Notes: a model not told the origin generated them from the sequence alone. A DNA stretch of 32,000 bases from Pseudodesulfovibrio mercurii (GCF_000189295.2 NC_016803.1:1830001-1862000), one strand, 5' to 3'; shown: positions 22,737 to 31,990, counted from the first letter of the stretch. Made by a program: numbers and translations.

Positions 22737-23918
22737 ATGCTGTACTTCCTGGGCAACTGTCAAATGGATTTCCTGTCCCGCTCCGTGGCCGGGCTCGGCC
22801 CGTCCGTGGCCCACTTCGAGCTGGCCTCGCCCATGACCCACGCCAGCCACCCGGACGGGGTCCCTCCCGCCCTGGCCAGCATGGTCCGCGAGCACCGGCT
22901 CGACGACGCGTTCAACGGCCGCCAGCCGGAATACCAGTTCGGCCGGTTCGACGTGCCCGGACGGGAAAACGAGCCGCCCGCCCTGCTGGTCGTGAACCTG
23001 TTCCACGAGACGGCCCCGCTCTTCCTGCACACGGAGGACGGCTTCATCTTTCACATGAACCCGGCGGCCTGGCGCGACGATCCGGCCCTGGCCGCCCGGA
23101 TGGATGCCCGCTGCCGCGCCATCGCGCCCAACCCGGCCACCTACCTGACCCGGTTCGGCCGGTTCCTGGCCCTGCTCCGCGAGCGCTTCCCGGCCACGCC
23201 CATGCTCCTGGTCACCCGCCTGGGCCACTACCCGGCCTTCGGCCCGGCACCCTACTCCTACCTGGAGAACTGGGCGGCCCTGAGCCGCGAGGCCCCGGCC
23301 CACTACGCGGTCTGGGAGCGGGAGCTGGGCGTGCGCGTGCTCGACGCGAACCGCGTGTTCGGCGGCATCTGGCGGGAGTCGGATGACGGCATCGAGGCGC
23401 ACTGCCCGTTCCTCAAGATCGAGCTCACGGAGCGGGACGGCGCGGTGATCGGCCTGCGCGCCTCGCGCGACGTGGAGCACGTGGGCCCGCTGTGGGCCGG
23501 GCTGGCCCGCAAGGTCGTGGCCTTCGCGGAGGGAGGGGAAATCCGCTACGCGGCGAACGAGACCGTGCCGCCCGAGTGGAACCGGCCATGGCAACCCTCG
23601 GTCCTGGACGACGAGGCGGTCATCGACCGCTTCGCCAGCGAGCGCAACTACCCCTGGGCCGAGGCCGTGGGCAGCTTCTTCATGGACCTCGCGCGCGACC
23701 GCACCCCCCTGCTGGCCGCGTCCGGCGAGTTCATGCCCGTGTGCCACAACACCCTGCACATGATCCGGGCCTACGGCCGCATCTTCAAAAATCCGCTCCT
23801 GGCCACCTTCTGCGACACCCACCGCCCGGCCGCCGAGGCCTTCACCGCCAACGGCCCCCTGTACCAAGCCGACTACCTGGCCCGCCTGGACGAAATCCGG
23901 GCGCATGCCCTGAGCTGA
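22737..23918 (+). CDS. Hypothetical protein, 393 aa (N-terminal FLGNCQ motif; possibly WcbI-like, unverified)
   Basis: ATG 22737 with AAGGA upstream. GC3-rich codon pattern typical of the host genes. I recognise no family with confidence. Confidence 0.7.
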   Translation: MLYFLGNCQMDFLSRSVAGLGPSVAHFELASPMTHASHPDGVPPALASMVREHRLDDAFNGRQPEYQFGRFDVPGRENEPPALLVVNLFHETAPLFLHTEDGFIFHMNPAAWRDDPALAARMDARCRAIAPNPATYLTRFGRFLALLRERFPATPMLLVTRLGHYPAFGPAPYSYLENWAALSREAPAHYAVWERELGVRVLDANRVFGGIWRESDDGIEAHCPFLKIELTERDGAVIGLRASRDVEHVGPLWAGLARKVVAFAEGGEIRYAANETVPPEWNRPWQPSVLDDEAVIDRFASERNYPWAEAVGSFFMDLARDRTPLLAASGEFMPVCHNTLHMIRAYGRIFKNPLLATFCDTHRPAAEAFTANGPLYQADYLARLDEIRAHALS

Positions 23919-23977
23919 CCGGGATCGCCGGGTCACCGCCCTTGTCGCCAAGGAGCGGAAGGCCATGCCTAACTTAA

Positions 23978-24307
23978 TTATTTTACAGAGTATTCTTTCA
24001 GAATCCAGATGGAAGATGCGATCCAGAACAGACCCATCAGTACAAAAAGAATGCGCAATGCAACGGAATCAATAACGGGGGAGATAAACAAAGACAGCAT
24101 GAAAAGTCCGGCAAAGGCTAGGTATCCACTAGTGATAAACCGAAAAAAACGGACTTTTTTCCAAGTAAAATAGCTTGCCGTGGAGAAAACAACAACGCTT
24201 GCAGCTGAGGCTGCAAATAATACAAGGTGTTCATGGAATTGTGTTAACTTTAAAATCTGAGTAATGACATATGACAAAATGATGATAATGTATAATAGTG
24301 ATCTCAT
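23978..24307 (-). CDS. Four-TM membrane protein, candidate immunity protein for orphan toxin tail 3
   Basis: ATG 24307 with GGAG 5 nt upstream; the ORF-track TTG 24322 is less likely. Four hydrophobic helices. Strongly AT-rich. Immediately downstream of orphan tail 3. Confidence 0.65.
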   Translation of the reverse strand: MRSLLYIIIILSYVITQILKLTQFHEHLVLFAASAASVVVFSTASYFTWKKVRFFRFITSGYLAFAGLFMLSLFISPVIDSVALRILFVLMGLFWIASSIWILKEYSVK

Positions 24308-24365
24308 AGCTACTCCATACAATTTGACGTGGGGACAAATATTGTCCCCACGCTCTCAGTGCAGG

Positions 24366-24854
24366 CTATTTCCCAATCTTATTTTTAGCTTTGTTGTGGT
24401 GATAGTCTATGGTGTCTTTATCAGTACTGAACCTATAAGTACTCATGATGCCATCCCAAAGGCCAAAGCCATCTGCTTCATCATCAAGATTTTTCCTCAT
24501 TTTCCAATCATTCTCATCTGTATATTCACTCTTTCGCTCCCGTAGCCCTTGTTTGATTTTTTTCTTGGTGTAATGCCCCATTAACGGTGTTGCGATCGGG
24601 TCGGGCAGCACTTCCACTATCGTTCTCCCTTTTGAGATTTGCTCCCCATACTCGTTTGTCCACAGCCCCGCCGGATCCACCCCGTTCACCGGGTCGTCCA
24701 GACAATACCCGTACCAGTCCGGGTCGCCGCCCTTGTCCCCGATGGGGTCCGGCGCGGTCCAGCGGCCGGTCCTGACGTCATAGTCGCGCCAGCCGAAGCG
24801 GACGAAGCCCAGGTCCCGGTCGTGGAGACCTCCCGCGAAGCCGATGGGCAGGCG
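24366..24854 (-). pseudogene. Orphan Rhs fragment 3: core end (RLPIGFAGG...DPAGL) fused to a 98-aa unique C-terminal tail; no start codon before the conserved segment
   Basis: The frame is open from 24890, but the first ATG/GTG/TTG is GTG 24689, inside PVNGVDPAGL. Segment 24663-24854 differs from the main rhs segment 26665-26856 at 8 of 192 positions (hand count). Confidence 0.7.
24663..24854 (-). repeat. Rhs core-end repeat R3
   Basis: Third copy of the GC-rich segment encoding GFAGGLHDRDLGFVRFGWRDYDVRTGRWTAPDPIGDKGGDPDWYGYCLDDPVNGVDPAGL. Confidence 0.9.
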
Positions 24855-24890
24855 ATTTAACCGCCCTGCCGGATTGACAGGGCGGTTGTA

Positions 24891-25118
24891 TTATTTGTTA
24901 TTTCCCCGATTGCGGGATGGAGAACGGAGAATCCAAGCCAGGATGGGAATCCCAACGCCAATGACGATGAGTGAGCCGCCAAACAGTCGAGGATACAGGA
25001 CAGGGACATCCCAACGATACATTTCCCCTTTGGACACACCGGCCACTCCGATAAAGACAAAGAGGGTTGCCATGGTTATTTCCCACAACTTGATTCGCTT
25101 CACCGTCTCTTCCTCCAT
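24891..25118 (-). CDS. Two-TM small membrane protein, candidate immunity protein for orphan toxin tail 2
   Basis: 75-aa ORF overlapping the end of orphan tail 2 by 19 nt. Helices ATLFVFIGVAGV and GGSLIVIGVGIPILAWIL. The internal ATG (MATLF) is an alternative start. Confidence 0.55.
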   Translation of the reverse strand: MEEETVKRIKLWEITMATLFVFIGVAGVSKGEMYRWDVPVLYPRLFGGSLIVIGVGIPILAWILRSPSRNRGNNK

Positions 25119-25687
25119 ACATCCACAATTTCCTCTACTCCTTTCCTAACACCACTTCCCGCCACTCCTGCAGGTGTTTGCGGAGGAGGACCCGGATCAA
25201 AAAAACCGGATACGAAATCTGCACCGGCCGCGAGCTTATCCGGATGCTGCATGGCCGCCCCTAAAACAGCGGGGGCCCCTTCGACCGCTCCCGCCACCAC
25301 GATGGGGAGAGCCCCCGCACCTAAGGCGATCGCCGTATATTTTTGCAAATCCTTGTTGGTGGCAAAGGCGTCCGCCGTTTTGCTCAATGCCTTGCCAGCC
25401 CCCTTCACGCCCTTGGTAACGGCCTCACCGATACCGGCCGGGGCCTTGTCCCACAGCTTGCCGAAGCCCGCTTCGATTTTCTTCACGCCATCCCAAAATC
25501 CGCCTTCCAACCCCGCCGGATCAACCCCGTTCACCGGGTCGTCCAGACAATACCCGTACCAGTCCGGGTCGCCGCCCTTGTCCCCGATGGGGTCCGGCGC
25601 GGACCATTTGCCGGTCCTGACGTCGTAATCCCGCCAGCCGAAGCGGACGAAGCCCAGGTCCCGGTCGTGCAGGCCGCCCGCGAAGCC
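25100..25687 (-). pseudogene. Orphan Rhs fragment 2: core end (GFAGG...DPAGL) fused to a 135-aa unique Ala/Gly-rich C-terminal tail; no start codon before the conserved segment
   Basis: The frame is open from 25870, but the first possible start is GTG 25534, inside PVNGVDPAGL. Segment 25508-25687 differs from 26665-26844 at 11 of 180 positions (hand count). Confidence 0.7.
25508..25687 (-). repeat. Rhs core-end repeat R2
   Basis: Second copy of the core-end segment. It shares three variant positions with R3 relative to R1. Confidence 0.9.
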
Positions 25688-25707
25688 CTTGCTGACGGCC
25701 TGGATAG

Positions 25708-26145
25708 CTATTCCAAGTGTACCTCCGAAGAAAAAAGCATCGATCTTTTTTGGATGCCACGCATATTCAGTTCCTTGACCAAGTTGTTTTCTTTTGTGCT
25801 CAGCAGATAGTAAAAATTCAAAAATCCGGGGAGTACAATAATTACATTTTTTATCGTCATGTCCGTGTAGCTAGCCTGCCATATCCTGGCGTAGCGTATC
25901 TCATTGAATAATATTCTTCCTTTCCCGAACAATGAATTGTATTCAATGCAATCGTGGCGAAAGCTTTCTGGAAGGACTATACGGGCAAAAAAACGGAGTA
26001 TAAAGATGCCAATAGGGATGAAAAGGATTGCAAGAGGAGTCGTCGGCAATATAAATACCCCAAAGAAAAGGCAACTCGTCCCGAAAGCGAAAAGAAATAT
26101 CCTAAAAAACCAAATTGAAAACAGAACGCGGGCTTTTTCTTGCAT
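25708..26145 (-). CDS. Membrane protein (two N-terminal TM helices plus ~80-aa soluble domain), candidate immunity protein for the Rhs C-terminal toxin 1
   Basis: ATG 26145 preceded by GGAGGAAAA. AT-rich. Helices VLFSIWFFRIFLFAFGTSCLFFGVFIL and LAILFIPIGIFILRFFARIV. Lies 48 nt downstream of the rhs stop. Confidence 0.7.
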   Translation of the reverse strand: MQEKARVLFSIWFFRIFLFAFGTSCLFFGVFILPTTPLAILFIPIGIFILRFFARIVLPESFRHDCIEYNSLFGKGRILFNEIRYARIWQASYTDMTIKNVIIVLPGFLNFYYLLSTKENNLVKELNMRGIQKRSMLFSSEVHLE

Positions 26146-26193
26146 TTTTCCTCCAAAGGCCGGGAGTATATTTCTCCCGGCCTTCTTTACTCT

Positions 26194-27567
26194 TTAGCGA
26201 ATACCTCGTTTAGTCCCAAAGCGTTCGTCCATTCTTTTCCGGATTTGGCCGTCATACCAATCGCCAAATTTTGAAAACGGATTCTCGATGACGATGCTTT
26301 TCTCTTGTTTCACATGCGTCTCCATCGGAGGCGACCAGCCCGCACTTACCCCGAGGCTGGCAGATTTTCCGGTATAGCCATCTCCCTTGACCGCTTCCCC
26401 GCCCACTTCAGGCTTTAATCCCAAAATGGGAACAACGACTTTCCCACCTGCTTTGTTCGACGTTCCTTCCAACTGGCCTATGTCGGAAGCATTCGTTTTC
26501 TGATGAAAGGCTTCTCCTGACAGATTCCACCCGGATGATGCCCCATAGTCCATGAAAAGCTCGACACCGGAAGCTCCCTTTTCGTCAGTTACATAGGCTG
26601 CTCCCCCTCCTATGCTTCCGCCAAATCCGTCCAGAGATGCGGATATGCCGCTTCCCTTGGTTTCCAACCCCGCCGGATCAACCCCGTTCACCGGGTCGTC
26701 CAAACAATACCCGTACCAGTCCGGGTCGCCGCCCTTGTCCCCGATGGGGTCGGGCGCGGTCCAGCGGCCGGTCCGGACGTCATAGTCGCGCCAGCCGAAG
26801 CGGACGAAGCCCAGGTCCCGGTCGTGGAGGCCGCCCGCGAAGCCGAGGGGCAGGCGCAGGCTCGGGTTGGTGTCCTCGATGATCCCGCCAAAGGGATCGT
26901 ACAGGACCTCCTTTATCACGTTTCCGTCCACGTCGGCAACCACGCGCAGGGAGCCGACCTGGTCATAGAACAGCCCGGCCACGGTCCCGTCGTCGCGGCG
27001 CATGGCGTAGGGCGTGCGCTCGCCCTCGCGGTAGGCGAACTCGTAACCGTGCCGCCCGTCGTGGAACGCGGCCAGGCGCACGAAATCGAGCCAATGGTAG
27101 ACCTCGACCATCTGCCCATTCAGGTACTTGGCCGCGCGCCGCCCGTCACCGTCGTGGGCAAAGGTCAAGGCCTTGCCCCGGCCTTCCTCCTCGGCCTTGA
27201 GCAGCCGGTAGTCCGGGCTGTACTCGTACAGGGTGTACACGCCCCTGTCCGACCAGATGGACCGGAAGCCGCGCTCGTCGTGGGAATACTGCCCGGACCC
27301 GGCTCGCATCAGCCGGTTGTCCTGAGTATACTGGTAATCCCGATAATTCGGCCCGGTCGTGGCGGGCAGATAGTCCCGCACCCGGCGGCCCTCCCGGTCG
27401 TACCAGCACTGGCAGATGACCCGCCCGTCCAGTTTGGCCTCGATCAGCCGTCCGTCCCCGTCATAGGCGTAGGCCCAGACGGACTTCCGCCCCCTGACGG
27501 TCTCGATTTTCTCCACAATGTGCCCGTCCGGGTCGCGCCTCAATTCCAGGGTATACGGTATGCTCAT
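26194..27567 (-). CDS. Short RHS-repeat (YD-repeat) protein with RHS core end and ~156-aa C-terminal toxin-like tail
   Basis: ATG 27567 with GGAGG upstream. YD repeats: YAYDGDGRL, WYDREGRRV, FAHDGDGRR, LYDPFGG. Core end: LGFAGGLHDRDLGFVRFGWRDYDVRTGRWTAPDPIGDKGGDPDWYGYCLDDPVNGVDPAGL. This is followed by an unrelated Gly-rich tail. Confidence 0.85.
   Translation of the reverse strand: MSIPYTLELRRDPDGHIVEKIETVRGRKSVWAYAYDGDGRLIEAKLDGRVICQCWYDREGRRVRDYLPATTGPNYRDYQYTQDNRLMRAGSGQYSHDERGFRSIWSDRGVYTLYEYSPDYRLLKAEEEGRGKALTFAHDGDGRRAAKYLNGQMVEVYHWLDFVRLAAFHDGRHGYEFAYREGERTPYAMRRDDGTVAGLFYDQVGSLRVVADVDGNVIKEVLYDPFGGIIEDTNPSLRLPLGFAGGLHDRDLGFVRFGWRDYDVRTGRWTAPDPIGDKGGDPDWYGYCLDDPVNGVDPAGLETKGSGISASLDGFGGSIGGGAAYVTDEKGASGVELFMDYGASSGWNLSGEAFHQKTNASDIGQLEGTSNKAGGKVVVPILGLKPEVGGEAVKGDGYTGKSASLGVSAGWSPPMETHVKQEKSIVIENPFSKFGDWYDGQIRKRMDERFGTKRGIR
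26665..26856 (-). repeat. Rhs core-end repeat R1 (inside the intact rhs gene)
   Basis: Reference copy for R2 and R3. Confidence 0.9.
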
Positions 27568-27711
27568 TCGGCCTCCGTTGGTTTCGTCCCCGAGGCCCAT
27601 CCCCGGGAATCCGAACCAGCATACCCCCGGTTTTCGCCAACACCCTGTTTTGTCGAAGAATGACGCCCAAAAGCGCCCGATAAGCATAAAAAAGCAACTT
27701 GACAGGGAGTA

Positions 27712-27804
27712 GGAATGCCTCCGGCGGCCAGGGGGGAAACTTTCGAGAAAGTTTCCCCCCTGGACCCCTCTTCAAAGCTTTTTGGCGCCGCTTCGCGGGG
27801 TGGG
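27712..27804 (+). repeat. Modular intergenic repeat, copy C (same arms, different single long hairpin)
   Basis: GGAATGCCTCCGGCGG; perfect 17-bp hairpin CCAGGGGGGAAACTTTC-GA-GAAAGTTTCCCCCCTGG (27728-27763); ACCCCTCTTCAAAGCTTTTTGGCGCCGCTTCGCGGGG. Confidence 0.85.
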
Positions 27805-28067
27805 CACCCCCAACAAAAAGACCTCCGACTCAACATAGAGTCGAAGGCCCTGTCTTACCTCTTTGGAGCGATTCGGGTGCGCAGCACCCGACAGCGGCTC
27901 TCTCCCCCGCGCTCGCACTAGGCTTGCGAGAGTGGTGCAGCTGTGCATTTTCTTCCGGCCGGGGCAACCGCAGCGTAGCCGTCTACGTGAGGATTGGCCC
28001 GGCCGGAAAAAATGTGCAGATGCGCCGCTATCGCAAGCCGCCCCCCCGTTCTCCGAAGGGAGCCCCC

Positions 28068-31426: not shown

Positions 31427-31990
31427 CTACTGACCCCTGACTATGGCGTAGATGTCCTTGGGCGACATGTCGTGCTCGGAGGCCAGGGTCTTGAAGGAAC
31501 TCTCCGGGGTGGCGTCGATGCCCGCGCCCTTGAGCCGGGCCAGGACCTCTTCCAATTCCAGGCCGTAGGTCTTGCACACGACGGCCACCGTGAGCTTGCC
31601 GGTGCCCTCGGGCGGCTGGACGGGCATCAGGGCGAAGGGATCGCCGCCCTGCTTGGCGCGGATGATGTCGTAGACGTGCTGCGGGCTCATGTTGCGCGAC
31701 CGGGCGATGTCCTTGACCAGGGTCTCCCCGTTGATGGACGGGTCAAAGCCCGCCTCGTGCAGGGCGGCCAGGGCCTTGTCCACGTCCAGGCCGAGGAAGC
31801 CGCAGAACTTCTTCAGCGGGCTGGTCTCGGCGTGACCGTAGGGCGGGTTGCCGTAGGTCTCGGTGGCGTCCTCCTTGATCTGCGCGCCATAGTCGAGCAG
31901 CGTGCTCATGGGCGGCAGGCCGACGAGGGTGCCGGCGAAGACCAGGAAGACCAGGACGAAGCTGACGATCATGGGGGTGGTCATGACCAC
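31427..31990 (-). CDS. Membrane-anchored protein with two tandem ~48-aa repeats, first gene of the kinase/regulator operon (start uncertain; frame stays open to the window edge)
   Basis: Stop lies 7 nt upstream of the kinase ATG. Hydrophobic N-terminal segment IVSFVLVFLVFAGTLVGL. GC3-rich. Possible starts are GTG 31990 and ATG 31984, or the start lies beyond the window. Confidence 0.7.
   Translation of the reverse strand: MVMTTPMIVSFVLVFLVFAGTLVGLPPMSTLLDYGAQIKEDATETYGNPPYGHAETSPLKKFCGFLGLDVDKALAALHEAGFDPSINGETLVKDIARSRNMSPQHVYDIIRAKQGGDPFALMPVQPPEGTGKLTVAVVCKTYGLELEEVLARLKGAGIDATPESSFKTLASEHDMSPKDIYAIVRGQ

Follow-up and report, generated by a model that had tools for sequence, protein, structure and literature searches.

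Arrays in which one main rhs gene is followed by orphan fragments of others are already well known. For the enterobacterial rhs loci they were reportedly described by Jackson et al. in 2009, together with a C-terminal displacement model. The rhs loci of Snodgrassella alvi, from the bee gut, likewise consist of a main gene and arrays of orphan rhs C-terminal (CT) and immunity genes (PMC5727410). Here we describe an Rhs-family island from a 32,000-nucleotide (nt) stretch of the Pseudodesulfovibrio mercurii chromosome (NC_016803.1, 1830001-1862000; this whole stretch is called the window below, and positions are counted from its first letter). The island is very probably a polymorphic-toxin locus, made up of one translated short-form rhs gene and two displaced toxin/immunity modules. 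What is novel about it is the main gene, a one-third-length Rhs that is found across a clade of sulfate reducers.

As in the enterobacterial and bee-gut loci, a translated rhs gene and a candidate immunity gene are followed by 5′-truncated core ends, each with a different tail and a candidate immunity gene of its own. The core end is a direct repeat that would permit tail exchange, and the tail and immunity modules are AT-rich, which suggests horizontal acquisition. However, the main genes of those loci encode a complete cocoon of ~1400 amino acids (aa) with a PAAR- or VgrG-linked N-terminus, and they lie in or near a type VI secretion system (T6SS) cluster, whereas the shell encoded here is ~300 aa long, carries no secretion domain and sits among housekeeping genes. 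An earlier, sequence-only reading of this DNA had drawn the enterobacterial analogy. It holds for the array of a main gene and orphans and for the truncated, start-less stubs; it is incomplete for the main gene, because this is a short form of 457 aa, with a YD shell of ~300 aa and no PAAR, VgrG-binding or signal domain, and not the full cocoon.

A repeat finder applied to 21-32 kb of the window returned a direct-repeat family with three copies, at 24663-24854, 25508-25699 and 26665-26856, the other two being 90% and 96% identical to the reference copy. We call the copy within the main gene R1 and those at the heads of the orphan cassettes R2 and R3. By direct count there are 11 mismatches in 180 positions between R1 and R2 and 8 in 192 between R1 and R3, precisely the figures that the sequence-only reading had reached by hand, and three stretches of 190 nt at 90-96% identity exclude a chance match. 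On the toxin side the homology stops sharply, in all three copies, at the codon for the final L of DPAGL. Toward the 5′ end it is gradually lost, at ~26868/24866 for R1 and R3 and at ~26845/25688 for R1 and R2. The minus-strand translation common to the copies is GFAGGLHDRDLGFVRFGWRDYDVRTG(R/K)W(T/S)APDPIGDKGGDPDWYGYCLDDPVNGVDPAGL, with a full reading of ...GFAGGLHDRDLGFVRFGWRDYDVRTGRWTAPDPIGDKGGDPDWYGYCLDDPVNGVDPAGL, after which each copy continues in frame into an unrelated tail of 156, 135 or 98 aa (CT1, CT2 and CT3). Behind every tail comes a small AT-rich open reading frame (ORF), and we call these I1, I2 and I3; translation thus bears out the arrangement that had been proposed.

The Rhs identity assigned earlier also stands. 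With TIGR03696, the NCBIfam profile hidden Markov model (HMM) of the RHS repeat-associated core, the main gene reaches 64.2 bits and both orphans likewise exceed the curated cutoff of 32.5 bits (Table 1), so that a significant RHS-core match is present in every copy, and the main gene has YD-shell homology in addition. The orphan stubs align with residues 238-300 and 242-300 of the main-gene query at 97-98% amino-acid identity. Upstream of PVNG neither has an in-frame ATG, GTG or TTG within its stop-to-stop frame (25870..25100 and 24890..24366), as the earlier reading had also noted, and because the stubs have no start codon, CT2 and CT3 should not be translated as Rhs fusions. The core ends and flanks have a GC content of 67-72%, and the tails and candidate immunity genes one of 38-59%.

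The one gene of the island that can be started begins at ATG 27567. GGAGG lies 6 nt upstream of this codon, and its position agrees with the N-termini of more than 100 homologues, whose lined-up beginnings (M-x-x-P/V-Y/F ... R/H-x-x-x-G-R-I-V-E-K) place the start here. Within the protein, Pfam TEN_YD-shell scores 75.9 bits (cutoff 50 bits) over profile positions 624-866 of 909 only, and the full-length RHS_core equivalog NF041261 scores 24.4 bits, far from its cutoff of 2000. In an AlphaFold2 (AF2) model from a 106-sequence alignment, residues 1-270 form beta-hairpins, with predicted local distance difference test (pLDDT) values of 83-97. Foldseek superposes the model at 2.3-2.5 Å over ~280 residues of teneurin YD shells, which have 1300-1900 residues, and also matches it to the Rhs cocoons RhsA, Tse5, RhsP, Tse15 and S. 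bongori Rhs and to TcB-TcC. As these matches cover ~13-24% of each target, the main protein is a partial shell, unable to close by itself, and by sequence and model alike it falls short of a complete closed cocoon, for which a shell of ~1000 aa or more would be expected.

The core end of this partial shell retains D273, D297 and a DP.G motif, which are invariant across 106 family members and found in all three copies in the window. We take D273 and D297 to be the autoprotease aspartates, from an alignment with the canonical Rhs core ends. Solved T6SS Rhs cocoons (P. protegens RhsA, 7q97; Tse5, 8cp6; S. bongori Rhs, 8qjb-d; A. baumannii Tse15, 8uxt) share with our protein the YD beta-hairpin fold and a core end with two aspartates and DPxGL, directly followed by the toxin. 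Unlike them, it can be aligned by Foldseek to just 280-350 residues of targets with 960-1400, it does not reach the full-length NF041261 model, and a domain scan of its 457 aa found no PAAR, VgrG-binding or VgrG-interaction domain, signal peptide, transmembrane region or N-terminal plug.

The short form is not peculiar to this locus. A search of 5.8 billion proteins gave 400 matches, the best 120 of which are all 290-600 aa long and 52-88% identical to the query over the first ~300 residues only; those whose source is named are almost all from Pseudodesulfovibrio. The nearest relatives of the main gene are from Pseudodesulfovibrio and Desulfovibrio caledoniensis, in agreement with the sulfate-reducing host that had been guessed from the sequence. 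In an exhaustive phmmer search of 1.84 billion representatives, long Rhs proteins of 1100-2770 aa aligned with the 300 aa from end to end through their final ~300 shell residues (36-45% identity), and the relatives at 45% or more were all short. Close relatives with a name belong to Pseudodesulfovibrio, Salidesulfovibrio, Humidesulfovibrio and Desulfovibrio. Alignments of 31 and 106 members have the same architecture, a conserved N-terminal part of 300 aa and a hypervariable tail directly after DPxGL, a motif found at about residue 291-301 in nearly all aligned relatives. A main gene together with one to three core-end stubs occurs in ~30 of the 55 related loci that we fetched (labelled L### where they need to be told apart; related proteins are labelled P####). 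The short form is the rule across the clade, and the main gene is not a canonical Rhs of ~1400 aa. One sub-family (P0125, P0127, P0128 and P0141) has an extra conserved N-terminal domain of ~100 aa (...ER.WIQYADG.FEPVR...WW.V..P..W.P...), which has no match in Pfam.

Are these short genes functional, or are they debris? A survey of T6SS Rhs containers suggested that short Rhs proteins are unexpressed orphans, some of them near a complete Rhs gene, and read them as material for diversification (bioRxiv 10.1101/2024.02.26.582050). Its short Rhs resemble ours: they are below 100 kDa, have a partial core of few YD repeats and a complete tail, and are modelled by AF2 as a partial shell unable to envelop the effector. 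By analogy, the whole locus, including the 457-aa gene, would be a graveyard of orphan fragments from a lost or distant full-length rhs, kept as stock for recombination or decaying. The small share of the solved Rhs and teneurin shells that the fragment represents (13-24%) fits such an account, as do damaged copies within the family, one with an internal TAG stop (L003) and two that are 5′-truncated, without their first 25-58 codons (L007 and L010). We nevertheless consider it unlikely. Over more than 100 proteins from several genera, the N-terminus, the start codon, the Shine-Dalgarno sequence and a leader of ~200-480 nt have been kept, whereas random truncation would give variable 5′ ends. 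The N-terminal part is under purifying selection: the pairwise ratio of non-synonymous to synonymous substitution rates (dN/dS) over its 900 nt is 0.06-0.26 across the family, and that of the main gene against its paralogues and orthologues is 0.19-0.26. Short genes also head arrays of their own at 4-8 or more unlinked loci per complete genome; D. caledoniensis has at least 7 such loci and a Pygsuia-associated isolate has 4.

The family HMM, run on all six-frame ORFs of the 55 loci, recovered 36 full-length starts, of which none has a long YD region upstream; multi-repeat long matches are confined to outgroup phyla, and a pattern scan of two complete genomes gave no long protein with the same core end. 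The short Rhs genes described here differ from those of the survey in their conserved start, leader and N-terminus, in the purifying selection on them, in having orphan arrays of their own and in having no complete Rhs nearby. That the short form is the functional unit seems to us somewhat more probable than not. In one locus, L020, an open frame of 770 aa was considered as a long form and rejected, because its upstream portion corresponds in alignment to leader sequence that is non-coding at other loci.

The position of the fragment within the shell raises the question of a missing partner. The 300 aa correspond to the final ~300 shell residues of Rhs proteins of 1100-2770 aa and superpose on the same part of solved shells, and such a fragment is unable to close alone. 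In a split cocoon of the TcB/TcC type, the N-terminal two thirds of the shell, and with them the connection to a secretion or injection machine, would come from a single partner gene at another site, and the paralogues would serve as interchangeable 'C' subunits with different toxins. TcC subunits (TccC3 and YenC; 4o9x, 4igl) are indeed similar in being the C-terminal part of a cocoon, with an autoprotease and a hypervariable toxin, and in occurring as several paralogues per genome; the many paralogues here, with their one highly conserved N-terminal part, recall those of TccC. The additional N-terminal domain of the sub-family mentioned above might be a trafficking or docking module and so give a hint to how the family is delivered. 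However, the shell of TcC is ~680 aa long and its gene adjoins those for TcB and TcA, whereas an HMM scan of the window and of ~600 kb flanking the 55 loci found no partner gene, and the neighbourhoods consist of unrelated housekeeping genes. The Foldseek matches to TcC are also globally poor, with a root-mean-square deviation of 12-14 Å. We regard a split cocoon as a rather unlikely solution.

The polymorphic-toxin reading, which we prefer, finds support in the shuffling of cassettes between genomes. Local tblastn searches with the tails and small ORFs against the fetched loci show that each tail is inherited together with its own downstream ORF, and that the pair switches between the main and the orphan position. 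CT1/I1 occupies the main position in L001 (88% identity for the tail, 73% for the ORF) and is orphaned in L016 (72%, 61%). The main position belongs to CT2/I2 in L006 and L016, whereas L001, L013-L015 and L031 have this pair as an orphan. CT3/I3, which is main in L002 (86%, 72%), is found as an orphan in L012 (I3 33%). CT2 is fused in register, right after the core end, to the full short-Rhs proteins P0010, P0020, P0022, P0060 and P0077 (64-74%), and CT3 is fused in register to that of P0007/L002 (86%) and to eight others. In related genomes, therefore, these segments are swappable modules and not parts of one ordinary conserved gene, which was the check that the sequence-only reading had proposed.

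The site itself is hypervariable. Its orthologue in D. caledoniensis (L005) is recognized by its flanks, a response-regulator gene 90% identical and a 393-aa gene 89% identical to those of the window. The space between them is taken up by a short Rhs whose tail, of 82 aa, is a different one, by a membrane protein of 197 aa and by additional ORFs. P. karagichevae (L044) shares the right flank, ahead of which lie three core-end stubs with two other tail types and ORFs bearing signal peptides. At both of these sister loci the rhs array is separated from the conserved gene of ~390 aa by an alpha/beta-hydrolase gene of 277-289 aa (L005 8594-9463; L044 4989-5822) that is not in the window (~23932), so the downstream boundary of the island has been reshaped by deletion or replacement. 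Swapped tails and a hypervariable content at a syntenic site are what the C-terminal displacement model predicts.

The sequence-only reading had found no recognizable toxin family in the tails, and our profile and structure searches agree. The three tails and the three small ORFs have no match in Pfam, NCBIfam, PHROGs or PADLOC, where sub-threshold noise was all that appeared (AmaP at 18.9 bits, cutoff 55; PHA synthase at 15 bits, cutoff 622), and among PDB sequences the profiles of CT1 and CT2 had no match with an E-value under 0.04. CT1 and CT3 alone each have one match in a word-indexed protein search, with no deeper alignment. The glycine-rich CT1 is modelled as beta-rich, with a helix at its C-terminus, but at a pLDDT of 30-46, and this model is not interpretable. 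The exact I1 protein is also present on a 1-kb SRA contig. CT2 reaches a maximum Kyte-Doolittle hydropathy of 1.85 (19-residue window), and its C-terminal half is a module common to other tails. Its ORF overlaps that of I2 by 19 nt (25100-25118), the ATG of I2 lying 16 nt before the CT2 stop. CT3 is predicted with more confidence, as four helices in residues 24-98 (AF2 pLDDT 76-91), and Foldseek finds it no structural neighbour (best E = 1.8). By hydropathy, all three small ORFs have segments resembling transmembrane (TM) helices, two each in I1 and I2 and four in I3; they are predicted integral membrane proteins and candidates for an immunity role. With all three immunity candidates in the membrane, the putative toxins would act on the cell envelope, and we infer that CT2 is most plausibly a membrane-inserting pore former.

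Pairs of a putative toxin and a small protector also suggest another use, inside the producing cell. The system might work as an intracellular toxin-antitoxin or abortive-infection module, with the Rhs part as a recombination handle or as an autoprotease that frees the toxin in response to a trigger. Neither an export signal in the gene nor a linked secretion gene in the 32-kb window was found; the putative toxin genes are closely linked to the small genes of their presumed protectors next door, to the point of overlap for CT2 and I2, and the islands occupy variable chromosomal sites, like mobile defence cargo. Yet no defence model of PADLOC and no phage family is matched, and some relatives within the short-Rhs family have tails that are typical of interbacterial toxins, namely Ntox44 in P0125 and PF10908/PF03734 in P0033 and P0098. 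PF10908 is the Tlde1-type T6SS effector domain. These tails support an interbacterial-toxin reading of the family. Arrays of orphan immunity genes are, in addition, a mark of conflict between strains (PMC5727410), and we think an intracellular role very improbable.

As an interbacterial polymorphic-toxin island, the locus may be expected to work as follows. The expressed product would be the partial YD shell of ~300 aa, with an aspartyl-autoprotease core (D273, D297 and DPAGL) and CT1. Autoproteolytic toxin release is established for canonical Rhs proteins, and autoproteolysis at D273/D297/DPAGL would free CT1 in the same manner, while I1, encoded just downstream, would protect the producer. 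The two displaced modules would each consist of a core-end stub, a toxin and an immunity gene (CT2 with I2, CT3 with I3). I2 and I3 would guard against neighbours that carry the cognate toxins, and CT2 and CT3 would be held in reserve, since homologous recombination across the core ends of ~190 nt could fuse the expressed N-terminal part to either of them. The predicted deletions are 1157 bp for recombination between R1 and R2 and 2002 bp for that between R1 and R3. By the reverse route, an incoming module would recombine in and the resident tail would be pushed downstream, which is C-terminal displacement.

A possible, if tentative, reading of how such a protein might be delivered is that the short Rhs is an autonomous scaffold for toxin delivery, with a partial YD shell, a fixed N-terminus and its own structured leader, present at many sites, which exports or presents envelope-acting toxins without a closed cocoon or a linked T6SS. 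Delivery might then involve the self-assembly of several partial shells or docking to a partner.

Several observations weigh against the toxin-island reading. Searches of Pfam, NCBIfam, PHROGs, PADLOC and PDB sequences, and with Foldseek for CT3, relate none of the tails to a toxin family or fold already described. A partial shell of 300 aa is unable to enclose a toxin in the way of the canonical Rhs cocoons, and neither the main gene nor the 32-kb window holds a secretion signal, PAAR, VgrG or a chaperone gene. In this genome we saw no recombinant with R1 linked to CT2 or CT3. Finally, the orphans have in-frame GTG codons, two of them inside the conserved segment at the V of PVNG (25534 and 24689) and a third beyond it (24617), so the orphan tails are not strictly untranslatable. 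GTG 24617, on the minus strand, is 15 codons into CT3 and has GGGAG at 24625-24629, 8-12 nt upstream. An 83-aa ORF that NCBI annotates in P. mercurii (P0275) starts at the equivalent position, and it is 99% identical to CT3, the sole difference being the start residue. A product from this codon would hold the entire predicted helical domain, and the supposedly 'silent' CT3 toxin domain might thus be translated alone.

Table 1. Features of the Rhs-family island and its leader (positions in the window)
Feature	Position	Strand or replicon	Remarks
Rhs-family island	~4.1 kb, 23932-28046	Pseudodesulfovibrio chromosome	between sigma-54 two-component system and conserved 393-aa gene
Main short rhs, 457 aa	26194..27567	-	residues 1-301 partial YD shell and core end (to DPAGL); 302-457 CT1
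R1, core-end repeat within main gene	26665..26856	-	encodes D273, D297 and DPAGL; presumed recombination substrate
CT1, 156 aa, glycine-rich (19%)	26197..26664	-	GC 52%; without known family
I1, candidate immunity for CT1, 145 aa	25708..26145	-	two TM-like segments; GC 40%
R2, core-end fragment, 5′-truncated, at head of orphan cassette 2	25508..25699	-	without upstream start; TIGR03696 51.9 bits
CT2 and stop codon, 135 aa	25100..25507	-	hydrophobic Gly/Ala-rich stretch YTAIALGAGALPIVVAGAVEGAPAVLGAAM
I2, candidate immunity for CT2, 75 aa	24891..25118	-	two TM-like segments; GC 50%
R3, core-end fragment, 5′-truncated, at head of orphan cassette 3	24663..24866	-	without upstream start; TIGR03696 59.6 bits
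CT3 and stop codon, 98 aa, charged	24366..24662	-	four predicted helices in C-terminal ~75 residues
I3, candidate immunity for CT3, 109 aa	23978..24307	-	four TM-like segments; GC 38%
Conserved non-coding leader of short-rhs unit	27568..28046	-	inverted repeat, palindrome, hairpin, Shine-Dalgarno
Shine-Dalgarno GGAGG	27573-27577	-	in leader
Hairpin of 8-9 bp, UUCCCGGGG-loop-CCUCGGGGA	~27590-27611	-	just 5′ of ACGAAACC, GGAGG and ATG 27567
Perfect 30-nt palindrome GGGGGGAAACTTTCTCGAAAGTTTCCCCCC	27728-27763	-	in leader
Long imperfect inverted repeat	27921-28039	-	in leader

The leader upstream of the main gene, ~480 nt long, is 70-92% identical in nucleotide sequence to regions upstream of short-rhs genes at unrelated chromosomal sites, with conservation that spans 200-480 nt between loci and begins ~20 nt past the stop of the adjacent response-regulator gene. 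It seems, on these alignments, to belong to the mobile rhs unit. Its hairpin shows compensatory changes in more than 15 loci when each leader is folded singly, e.g. CCCGAAA/UUUGGG in L016, CCCUAAAG/CUUUGGG in L013 and CCCGCCGC/GCGGCGGG in L037, and the outer pairing extends toward the Shine-Dalgarno sequence; this support is qualitative, coming from individual folds and not from a covariance model. The hairpin may be a 5′ untranslated region element for stability or translational control. RNAalifold gave no consensus structure for a 26-sequence alignment of the leaders, because the alignment is gappy, and a comparison of the leader with Rfam gave no match.

Other parts of the leader occur elsewhere too. 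Copies related to the palindrome lie away from rhs starts in other Pseudodesulfovibrio contigs (L001 13919-14003; L007 622-697), which suggests a dispersed element like a repetitive extragenic palindrome (REP) or a miniature inverted-repeat transposable element (MITE). A piece of the 27921-28039 module is found inverted near umuDC-like genes (L001 2032-2218). Consensus scans for promoters and terminators did no better than on shuffled sequence, and a sigma-54 or sigma-70 reading of a conserved GCCGAAAACCGGGG-TATGCT box was dropped, its spacing being off consensus by eye.

GC-rich hairpins lie at junctions of the modules: one separates the CT1 stop from the I1 start (26156-26184, AAGGCCGGGAG...CTCCCGGCCTT), one comes directly after the I2 stop (24862-24893, AACCGCCCTG...CAGGGCGGTT) and one separates the CT3 stop from the I3 start (~24330-24355, CGTGGGGACAAATATTTGTCCCCACG). 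The rest of the 32-kb window is housekeeping (murC, murB, glyA, fabF/G/H, plsX and gltX), with further genes for an HDOD protein, an OprD-type porin, a metallo-beta-lactamase (MBL) hydrolase and a sigma-54 two-component pair. No vgrG, eagR or tss gene occurs in the window, nor is one listed for the neighbourhoods of L001 and L002. Two proteins that are conserved in relatives have no Pfam match: the 393-aa protein flanking the island (22737-23918, +) and a 187-aa protein past the histidine kinase (31427-31990, -).

Our literature searches returned no description of Rhs systems, short Rhs or T6SS specific to Desulfovibrio or Pseudodesulfovibrio, and interbacterial antagonism has hardly been studied in these sulfate reducers, organisms of importance for mercury methylation and corrosion. 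The orphan array itself is ordinary. What we consider worth experimental follow-up are the possibly autonomous short Rhs, its structured leader and three uncharacterized pairs of putative toxins and membrane immunity candidates, the last of which may point to new envelope-targeting activities.

In summary, a clade of Pseudodesulfovibrio, Salidesulfovibrio, Humidesulfovibrio and Desulfovibrio species carries solely one-third-length Rhs genes as the expressed carrier, at several loci per genome. This challenges the current view, in which short Rhs are no more than unexpressed orphans and a closed cocoon is indispensable. A functional short form would raise the testable question of how an Rhs-linked toxin is kept from its producer, and how it is delivered, without encapsulation. 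Should the short Rhs prove to be an autonomous scaffold, Rhs biology would be extended to strict anaerobes and to a new architecture.

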